From contig OX597823.1 of NCBI GenBank assembly GCA_951406725.2, forward strand, positions 77,190,001 through 77,254,000: 64,000 nucleotides of DNA. Reading direction: 5' to 3'. A program made the position numbers and the translations under genes. Positions within the stretch are counted from its first letter, which is position 1. Each line of letters opens with the position of its first letter. A model generated the notes under the pieces. That model saw nothing but the letters and a program-made list of their open reading frames with translations, was not told the origin of the DNA and did not search any database. The DNA comes from Octopus vulgaris (Eukaryota). This document shows positions 8,960-33,303 of this stretch, piece by piece.

Positions 8960-9134
8960 TGAAGCCATAATCCGTGGCCCCTACCTGGGACGTAGTCAGT
9001 CCACCTGTGCATACCTCCCTTCTTGTGACACTTGTGAAGACCTGTTGAGGCAAGTGAGAATCGAATCGTATCGAATCAAATCGAACCAAATCAAAATAGA
9101 TGAACATCAATGGAATTTGTATCCTTGTGGTACC

Positions 9135-9416
9135 AGTGCCGGTGGCACATAAGAAAACCATCCGAACGTGACCGTAGCCAGTACCGCAATGACTGGCCTC
9201 CGTGCTGAGGGCACGTAACAAACACCATCCGAGCGTGGCCGTCCGCCAGCCTCGTCTGGCACCTGTGTCGGTGACACATAAGAAAACACCATCCGAGCGT
9301 GGCCGTCTGCCAGCCTCGTCTGGCACCTGTGTCGGTGGCACATAAAAAACACCATCCGAGCGTGGCCGTCTGCCAGCCTCGTCTGGCACCTGTGTCGGTG
9401 GCACATAAAATCACCC
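9135..9416 (+). repeat. ~63-bp tandem units in the RTE 3'UTR
   Basis: Recurrent GTG(C/T)CGGTGGCACATAAAAAACACCATCCGAGCGTGGCC, 4-5 units. Confidence 0.9.
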
Positions 9417-9597
9417 ACTACACTCTCGGAGTGGTTGGCGTTAGGAAGGGCATCCAGCTGTAGAAACACTGCCACATCTGACTGGCCTGGTGCAGCCTTC
9501 GGGCTTCCCAGACCCCAGTTGAACCGTCCAACCCATGCTAGCATGGAAAGCGGACGTTAAACGATGATGATGATGATATATATATATATATATTTAT

Positions 9598-9985
9598 GGA
9601 TGGAAGCACTCCGTCGGTTACGACGATGAGGGTTCCGGTTGATCCGAATCAACGGAACAGCCTGCTCGTGAAATTAACGTGTAAGTGGCTGAGCACTCCA
9701 CAGACACGTGCACCCTTAACGTAGTTCTCGGGGATATTCAGCGTGACACAGAGAGTGACAAGGCCGGCCCCTTGAAATACAGGTACAACAGAAACAGGAA
9801 GTAAGAGTGAGAGAAAGTTGTGGTGAAAGAGTACAGCAGGGATCACCACCATCCCCTGCCGGAGCCACGTGGAGCTTTTAGGTGTTTTCGCTCAACAAAC
9901 ACTCACAACGCCTGGTCTGGGAATCGAAACCGCGATCCTATGACCGCGAGTCCGCTGCCCTAACCACTGGGCCATTGCGCCTCCA
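9598..9985 (-). mobile_element. tRNA(Arg)-like SINE, family C, full length and young
   Basis: Head GGAGGCGCAATGGCCCAGTGGTTAGGGCAGCGGACTCGCGGTC...GGTTTCGATTCCC with A/B boxes and TCG anticodon-like loop; CpGs intact; (TCCA)n tail. Confidence 0.85.
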
Positions 9986-10008
9986 ATATATATTTATATA
10001 TATGTATA

Positions 10009-10498
10009 TACATTATTTACATTATTTACAATTGACAGATATTTGTCCTCATCCTGTTTGTTGTTAACACAATGTTTCGGCTGATATATCCTCCAGACTT
10101 CATTATTATTATTATTATTCGGGTCACTGCCTGGAATCAAACTCAGAATCTTGGGGTTAGTAGCCCACACTCTCAACCACTACTCCATATGCCCATGAGC
10201 ATAGTGCTTAAGAGTGCGGGCTAATAACCCCAAGATTCCGAGTTTGATTCAAGGCAGTGACCTGAATAATAATAAAAATAATAATAATAATAATGATAAT
10301 AATAATACCAATTACATCAAAAAATATCATAAGAATGAGAATCCAGGTTTGAAATTTCCCCAAGACACCTGATAAAGGCTGGAGGGTATATCAGCCAAAA
10401 TGTTGTGTTAACAACAAACAAGATGAGGACAAATATCCATCAATTATAAGTAATGTAAATAATGTACATAATTCCTCATCTCTTAAATATAGAACTGT
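10009..10498. mobile_element. Palindromic element: two divergent tRNA-like heads, each followed by (AAT)n and a hammerhead-like motif
   Basis: 10009-10194 is the reverse complement of parts of 10200-10466; A/B-box-like heads at the centre; hammerhead remnants at 10066-10105 (-) and 10364-10409 (+). Confidence 0.75.
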
Positions 10499-10511
10499 AT
10501 GTATATACATG

Positions 10512-19880: not shown

Positions 19881-20600
19881 GAGTATGTCAAAGTATGTCA
19901 AATAAAATACAACATAAATTTTTGATTTATTAAAATTAATTCTAATTCTGGATGATGTAACATAGTTACCAAATGGTAATTAGGAAGGGGAGATAACCTC
20001 TTGGGGAGGGGAGATAACCTCAAGAATCAAGAATTTTTCCAAAACTAACATTCCATTACAGAAAAAGGCTTATTGTTTCAAGTTGTCCAAGATGCCAAGC
20101 AGTAGGACTGAAACTGAAACCATGTAGTTGGAAAGCAAACATTTTAACACACAGTTCTATATTTAAGAGATGAGGAATTATTTACATTATTTAGATTATT
20201 TACATTTGACAGATGTTTGTCATCTTCTTTATTGTTAACAACAAACAAGAGGAAGACAAATATCTGTTAAATGTAAATAATGTACTTTTAACACACAGTC
20301 ATGTATTATATATTTATCATCATCATCACCAACTTTTAATGTCCATCTTCCATACTGGTATGAGTTGGATAGATTGACAGTATCTGATGGATCCGAGGAC
20401 TGTACTATTTTACAGTATCTGCCTTGACCTGGTTTCTATTGCTGGGCAACCTCCCTAATGCCAACGACCTTTCAGAGTGCACTGGGTGCCTTGTTGTGGA
20501 ACTAGCAAAAATAAGGTCACCATAGAGATTCTATGACTAAGATTCTCTTCAAATGAGTGATGCTGTAGTAAGGGAAGATGACTTTATTCATACATATAGA

Positions 20601-32715: not shown

Positions 32716-33303
32716 TCATAATTCATAGCTATATAATGCTATTGTGCCTGCGATTCACCTATATCACTGCTGTTGATATCATCAATTTTAAAATTTATCT
32801 ACCGATGATATGAACAGTAGTGACATCTGATTTCAAATCTCAGTGTTTGAATGTTTTGCTAAATTTTTATTCACCACGTGCTCTGTTTTTGGCACAAAAC
32901 AAAACCAGTTCCACTGTCAGAGTTTAACATGACGGTTATGAATTATTACTCAGTAGGCCACTCTGATGAGGCTCATGGTTTAAATACTCAGAAGCCGAAA
33001 CCTGGTTTGTGGATATCCCTAATGTTTTAATTCTTTCTGTCTTCCTTGCAAACAGTTTTTCTCTTTTATCTTGGTGCAGTATGGTGGATTAATTCAAGAC
33101 TTTAACTCTTATTTCTAGCAGGTATATTCTTGTTAAGCATCATTACTCTTTGTGCAAATTTATAATTCATAGCTATGTAATGCGATTGCCCCTGCGATTC
33201 ACCTATATCACTGCTGGTAATATCATCAATTTTAAATTTCTCCACCGATGATATGAAGAGTAATGACATCTGATTTCAAATCTCAGTGTTTTAATGTTTT
33301 GCT
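32716..33303. repeat. ~145-bp direct repeats (32716-32860, 33162-33303) flanking a hammerhead-like motif
   Basis: Near-identical ATAATTCATAGCTAT...AATGTTTTGCT blocks. Confidence 0.85.
32958..33012 (+). ncRNA. Putative minimal hammerhead ribozyme
   Basis: ccact CTGATGA ggct...agcc GAAA cctgg TT tgtgg. Confidence 0.55.

Follow-up and report, generated by a model that had tools for sequence, protein, structure and literature searches.

We have analyzed a 64,000-nt stretch of Octopus vulgaris DNA (contig OX597823.1, positions 77,190,001 to 77,254,000 of the forward strand), referred to here as the window, and within it a fold-back insertion at positions 10001 to 10510. A preliminary description of this segment had reported a head-to-head palindrome centered at about 10195. 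We observed that the palindrome is real, that its center is 10194/10195, and that its arms are 85.7% identical over 182 nt and 87.9% identical over 99 nt. The insertion is bounded by identical, TA-rich, 13-bp target duplications (TSDs) at 10001 to 10013 and 10498 to 10510 (both plus strand), an assignment that draws on the family-wide flank test described below; the last 4 nt of the left copy are also compatible with the end of the element.

As judged by alignment of the arms, the inverted arm (10010 to 10194, minus strand) is a copy of positions 1 to ~253 of a terminal repeat (pLTR) and is without the tail. Its tRNA-derived head at 10120 to 10194 (minus strand) was recognized with nhmmer against a genomic tRNA profile (E 6e-6) and by alignment to tRNAs, and its A box (10187 to 10177) and B box (10142 to 10134), both on the minus strand, have one change each. 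An internal deletion of ~60 nt has removed the spacer, the start codon and the 5' half of a hammerhead ribozyme, whose 3' part remains at 10066 to 10103 (minus strand); with its 5' core missing, this hammerhead is not expected to cleave. The sense arm begins at about pLTR position 6 with a second tRNA-derived head at 10195 to 10264 (plus strand; arm alignment and majority of copies), in which the A box is damaged and the B box (10242 to 10250, plus strand) has one change. An (AAT)n tract, which had been said to follow the head on each arm and is present on both, occupies 10265 to 10308 (plus strand) between this head and the start of an open reading frame. The first ~54 codons of that RT-endonuclease ORF (10335 to 10497, plus strand, ATG at 10335) were located by tblastn with the majority protein of the family, residues 1-53 of which matched the window with an E value of 3e-17. 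The ORF start holds both a minimal type I hammerhead (10364 to 10409, plus strand; architecture as in the available text of PMC4209133), decayed by comparison with the majority through two core changes (G8 and G12) and an altered stem III, and a one-sided tail of ~34 nt (10464 to 10497, plus strand), which lies between two 3' termini found in family copies and is comparable to a tail described in the available text of PMC11167929. By analogy, we infer that these two termini are the start sites of reverse transcription.

Other repeats were noted nearby or elsewhere in the window. A second, shorter fold-back of the same family, recognized by alignment and by the flank test, is located at 20151 to 20284 (minus strand) and consists of the 3' part only, with its own TSD. 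An unrelated tRNA-headed, SINE-like repeat lies just upstream of the insertion at about 9590 to 9985 (minus strand), and positions 9128 to 9414 are a tandem array with four to five copies of a 63-66-bp unit.

The fold-back is, we are confident, a pLTR pair, each arm being the pLTR of an abundant Penelope/Poseidon-type retrotransposon. A sequence upstream of the head is common to 5 of 60 early loci and is found inverted in a sixth, and its translation corresponds to the C terminus of a protein of the Penelope type. Among 20 loci picked by this ORF end, the ORF end runs into the pLTR in 19, in keeping with the Penelope-type mobilization originally proposed, and RT motifs were found on walking upstream from it. 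Locus L119 is a partial tandem of the order ORF end-pLTR-ORF-pLTR, and one copy begins at the head and then enters the ORF. In long copies, the repeat continues into this ORF. The column majority of 41 copies yields an open frame of 835 codons, with its ATG within the pLTR and upstream of the hammerhead, in a 2.7-kb unit that reads head, (AAT)n, ORF, 30-nt UTR, next head. We also observed, in the 30-nt UTR before the head (e.g. in L046, L119 and L186), a degenerate inverted copy of the first ~18 nt of the head, which is perhaps the relic of a fold-back that created the junction.

The ORF consists of RT plus a GIY-YIG-like domain at the C terminus, with the hammerhead within its first codons. 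Its Penelope/Poseidon placement is based on similarity: the element protein has a Pfam RVT_1 match, and a natural copy with 569 stop-free codons is 37% identical over those 569 aa to an 836-aa Anolis protein (E 2e-108; 46% in the RT segment). Pfam returned no GIY-YIG match for the element protein or for the Anolis protein, and the endonuclease region of the former aligns with the latter. With the RT segment we found 151 relatives at E values of 1e-20 or less among 793 candidates, the closest being 60-73% identical and a barnacle cluster 59%. The plus arm is a high-copy repeat (4858 candidates, of which 40 were scored, at 85-90% identity), and exact genome matches number 2608 for the 34-nt tail, 2288 for a 27-nt head motif and 1427 for a 36-nt hammerhead core, with 0 for the reversed-pattern control of each; given a divergence of about 5-6%, copy number would be on the order of ten thousand. 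In contigs from runs labeled as four organisms, the ORF end and pLTR are covered, and a contig spanning the junction between them is listed for 3 of the 4.

In the head, the A box at position 8 and the B box at position 53 are in tRNA register, and in the family majority both boxes are perfect although the acceptor stem has not survived. When the head was aligned to tRNAs of the same genome, the best match was tRNA-Arg, with z about 7-8 relative to 200 shuffles, and p was at most 0.02 for 26 of 30 tRNA loci. The tRNA-like heads described earlier are present on both arms of the insertion, each with lesions. Rfam scoring, which had been suggested as a check, did not add to this: the tRNA model matched neither the window element nor a good head copy, the hammerhead covariance models matched neither the window element nor a good family copy, a scan of the whole window gave only microsatellite noise, and ARAGORN found no tRNA in the window. 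The tRNA likeness of the head rests on box positions and on alignment to the genome's tRNAs rather than on Rfam or ARAGORN. The expected linkage of head and hammerhead across copies was seen, the pLTR body being present in 28 of 30 head-anchored loci; by this count we rejected as its source a donor SINE having the same head and another body. No tRNA head was found at the pLTR position among 80 metagenome loci of relatives, most of which are without a full pLTR and whose best segments match the query protein at 28-48% identity; a single tRNA-like match among relatives lay in unrelated upstream DNA and was discarded. In L050, L059, L196, L205, L206 and L212, the 3' end of another repeat abuts the (AAT)n tract in place of the head. 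This repeat reads like an R4/Dong-type LINE, an identity that would be consistent with insertion targeted to TAA microsatellites.

Neither hammerhead in the window is intact. The preliminary description had reconstructed an intact minimal motif with a palindromic stem III from the two damaged arms jointly, and the genome bears this out, the same type I motif being the majority sequence of 30 genomic copies and its 36-nt core recurring exactly as stated above. The core is intact in 54 of 114 distinct matches elsewhere, and in intact copies the predicted cut falls between the positions equivalent to 10404 and 10405. The fold of the monomer with stems I and II lies 1.4 kcal/mol above the minimum-energy fold. 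Among the 114 matches, core position 7 is freer than its neighbors (top forms: T 59, A 16, C 6), a variation that the constraint on a ribozyme would allow and that amounts to a conservative change in the coding frame as well. At the N-termini of relatives that are ~60% identical (P0020, P0138 and P0149), one can recognize the short peptide that the hammerhead encodes, which points to conservation of the hammerhead within the ORF in this subgroup. A hammerhead-like motif of type I also occurs in another dispersed repeat, unrelated to this family, at window positions 32950 to 33020 (plus strand; also L169-L183); 135 candidates were obtained, of which 40 were scored at 73-89% identity, and in 15 loci the core is kept in most, with no ORF of the Penelope family nearby.

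The head is also where copies of the repeat end. Among 73 distinct heads that are intact, the UTR follows on in 12. The other 61 start at the head boundary, the match ending between about -7 and +4; a short fold-back is found there in 17, and the remaining 44 adjoin different sequence. Of 70 tail-anchored loci, 18 have sense arms starting between -19 and +7, and 6 extend into the ORF. The 5' boundary is the same in DNA contigs, and it coincides with tRNA position 1. Since copies stop here, the head probably marks the 5' end of the RNA, a start of the RNA at this point being the simplest interpretation. With a Pol III promoter of type 2, transcription would start at this position. A hairpin between the UTR, with its degenerate inverted head start, and the head might also stop RT at the boundary.

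From its boxes and register, the head may act as a Pol III promoter from which the element is read. The sequence TTTT is absent from the 2.7-kb majority unit, where a mean of 2.9 is obtained by synonymous shuffling (P 0.029) and of 4.5 by shuffling of bases (P 0.009), and this absence fits transcription by Pol III. GGGG is likewise absent, which weighs against this reading. The density of TTTT is 0.45 per kb in 66 own copies vs 2.3 per kb in 55 relatives with a comparable T content (after 3 near-duplicates were dropped, 77 of 80 loci entered the count). However, the 66 own copies descend from one ancestor, which makes the T-run result one observation. Also against the reading, 3 of 44 control loci of at least 1300 nt were free of TTTT, and one of these three, in which TTTT is missing throughout 2265 nt, is of the TATA type. 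We sought a further T-run control in a second Poseidon family of the genome and rejected it, as 30 of 30 loci found with a distant relative belonged to the same family. In its fullest form, which we put forward as possible but rather speculative, the proposal is that an autonomous coding retrotransposon captured a tRNA-derived internal promoter, lost every TTTT and is made as a full Pol III transcript of 2.7 kb or more, that internally primed RT turns this one RNA into full elements as well as SINE-like solo repeats by the thousand, and that the RNA, having no cap, is translated near the hammerhead by a cap-independent route. Such a route would be required for an uncapped Pol III RNA, and translation would need uncut RNA, because cleavage by the hammerhead would remove the ATG. 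Ribozyme-linked, cap-independent translation has been reported in other systems (available text of PMC13725137).

We find quite plausible, if short of probable, a competing account in which the arms are still pLTRs but the tRNA head is a passenger, the stub of a captured tRNA-SINE, and Pol II starts from a TATA-like motif at the end of the preceding unit of a partial tandem, the start falling at the head by chance. A weak TATA-like hexamer lies at -34 and would allow a plausible start at -2, so that Pol II could start at the same place; TATAAAT is found upstream of the hammerhead in 4 of 13 other Poseidon-like pLTRs inspected; the available text of PMC6765202 describes PLE transcription from the pLTR of an upstream partner; and the translation problem would be solved. 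However, the hexamer, which overlaps the end of the ORF, is poor as a TATA box and includes the stop codon, the A and B boxes are perfect in the majority despite loss of the acceptor stem, the boundary falls on tRNA position 1, and TTTT is missing over the whole 2.7 kb. An extra 5' G, as a signature of a cap, was not seen by eye among intact heads, an observation that is not decisive.

RNA-seq data from a related organism (about 6% of three runs, from libraries that look unstranded and were made by a standard protocol) gave no peak of starts or ends on the element and no signal at the cut site, where the preliminary description had hoped to find RNA ends, and none of the joints listed ran from cut site to cut site. 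We observed that 85-87% of reads run on into unlike sequence and that the pLTR is covered some hundred-fold more than the ORF. These results fit passive read-through and say nothing about the polymerase. The reads do have loose ends at two sites 34 nt apart. Family copies end, on the 3' side, at either of two termini separated by about 34 nt, and on the 5' side at a sharp boundary that coincides with the head.

We have compared 127 solo pLTRs with 49 ORF-linked pLTRs, and observed that all majority alleles are common to both, with no fixed allele in about 250 positions; 4 positions were distinguished at p<0.01, and these differ in mutation load only. With no fixed solo allele among these copies and the whole sequence contained in the autonomous unit, no separate non-autonomous SINE lineage was found; the arms are the pLTR of an autonomous element, and not the separate SINE or retrozyme that had been suggested. 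It might still be supposed that solo pLTRs also multiply as a true Penelope-mobilized SINE, Pol III transcribing the solo copies and the enzyme copying them in trans, and we think this unlikely. Solo copies do hold every cis part (promoter, RT start sites and tail), pLTR depth in DNA contigs is several times that of the ORF end, and solo copies are slightly less diverged than ORF-linked ones (5.5% vs 6.8%). But solo copies were picked by exact patterns, which biases them toward young copies; 5' truncation alone enriches 3' ends; no fixed solo-only allele was seen; and flanks past the 3' end favor the next letters of the ORF for 5 nt, although AT-rich targets could explain this. Ohshima and Okada in 1994 reportedly described three octopus SINEs, and the solo repeat may belong among these. 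A literature search with the octopus SINE names OR1 and OR2 found no paper.

We surveyed 70 tail-anchored loci in genome order for fold-backs. Inverted upstream pieces are common among them, and both breakpoints are variable. For the flank test we used 36 cases with an inverted 3' piece, comprising 34 loci and the two window copies, a few miscalled ends being kept; a flanking direct repeat score of at least 9 was obtained in 24 of 36, compared with 0.6% of 1260 mismatched pairs. Direct repeats around the fold-backs indicate a single insertion event. The inverted outer ends lie at pLTR position 240-260 in 31 of 36 cases, short of the tail, and the sense arm ends near 284. Also, paired arms have rare variants in common in 42 of 606 vs 92 of 6310 between loci (99 pairs, some loci possibly being counted twice), or about five times more often, as fits either a single template or later conversion; the arms of the window fold-back have 1 of 13 variant positions in common.

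On our reading, the fold-back is one decayed insertion of two head-to-head pLTR copies, and we consider the chain as a whole likely, including the mechanism of its formation and the head as RNA 5' end. According to this mechanism, the element's enzyme would prime reverse transcription from both strands of one cut, starting internally at either 3' terminus, as in anole Poseidon, for which the available text of PMC11167929 describes cutting and extension of both strands and RT from two internal sites bounding the tail. A start in the 5' pLTR that ran to the RNA 5' end would give SINE-like solo pLTRs, a start in the 3' pLTR would give ORF-bearing copies, and two cDNAs joined at their ends would give a fold-back with the tail on one side only. 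Such internal priming would make poly(A) or a fixed 3' end unnecessary. That the template RNA would be made by Pol III, after binding of TFIIIC to the A and B boxes, is a step for which we regard the chances as evenly balanced. Inverted 5' copies with a one-sided tail are a known PLE insertion pattern with variable breakpoints (available text of PMC8557442), and the bidirectional design perceived in the preliminary description is an instance of it. A purpose-built bidirectional self-cleaving retrozyme or SINE, with two heads driving divergent transcripts, is very improbable, because although two near-complete heads face each other here and in some other copies, the breakpoints of both arms vary freely between loci, the symmetric form is no conserved unit, both window hammerheads are broken, we saw no tandem arrays of regular form, and the cut site has no excess of 5' ends. 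A sense arm starting at most 3 nt from the cut was seen at only 2 of 70 loci, and in place of retrozyme-type tandem hammerhead units, which were not found, the copies are dispersed and head-to-head.

Among the systems with which the octopus element can be compared are SINE-like elements of Schistosoma, which we take to be Sm-alpha. The comparisons are with the available text of each source. Poseidon_Ac (PAc) of the green anole, a member of the Penelope/Poseidon clade (PMC11167929), which we infer to be the source of the 836-aa Anolis protein, likewise has a single ORF of RT and C-terminal GIY-YIG, a pLTR that overlaps the ORF start with the hammerhead in the first codons, and two RT start sites bounding a 30-40-nt tail. 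In contrast, the text available for PAc describes no tRNA-derived head, and the octopus ATG is about 35 nt upstream of the hammerhead core, behind the head and (AAT)n. Insertion units of EN+ PLEs (PMC8557442) share the inverted 5'-truncated copy and the one-sided tail, whereas octopus arms often reach a fixed 5' boundary at the tRNA-like head. From the minimal hammerheads of PLEs (PMC4209133) the octopus motif, a putative ribozyme, does not differ in architecture. In the Schistosoma elements (PMC6765202), a Pol III-type promoter is also followed by a hammerhead, but those elements are described as non-coding and tandem, and the octopus repeat is dispersed and forms the end of an element that codes for protein. 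The non-LTR retrozymes of animals (bioRxiv 10.64898/2026.07.22.740005) are similarly derived from PLE pLTRs and have a type I hammerhead, but they are defined by tandem units, with no tRNA head reported in that text. Finally, the Cassandra, Helenus and Ajax TRIMs (PMC10886601) also contain a small-RNA-derived (Pol III-type) sequence inside a terminal repeat, yet they are non-autonomous LTR elements, while the octopus element is an autonomous PLE.

The element class, the hammerhead, the fold-back, the one-sided tail and the target duplications are already known, and there is nothing out of the ordinary in the fold-back as such. What stands out is that the pLTR of an autonomous PLE contains a tRNA-derived head. 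Among the papers that our literature searches brought up, none described such a head; it was not found in the available text of the 2026 octopus repeat annotation (PMC13282606), including a term search of its supplement, nor in that of PMC8967140.

In repeat libraries, the solo copies are likely to be wrongly entered as SINEs. Independently of the question of Pol III, the fixed 5' boundary would map the start of a PLE RNA from DNA alone, and the family offers thousands of natural read-outs of the poorly understood PLE cycle, among them two RT start sites, priming from both strands, and duplications of 9-13 bp. If the head is a working Pol III promoter, the element would be a coding mobile element run by a polymerase reserved for short non-coding RNAs and, if true, this would provide one direct route from an autonomous element to SINE-like repeats.
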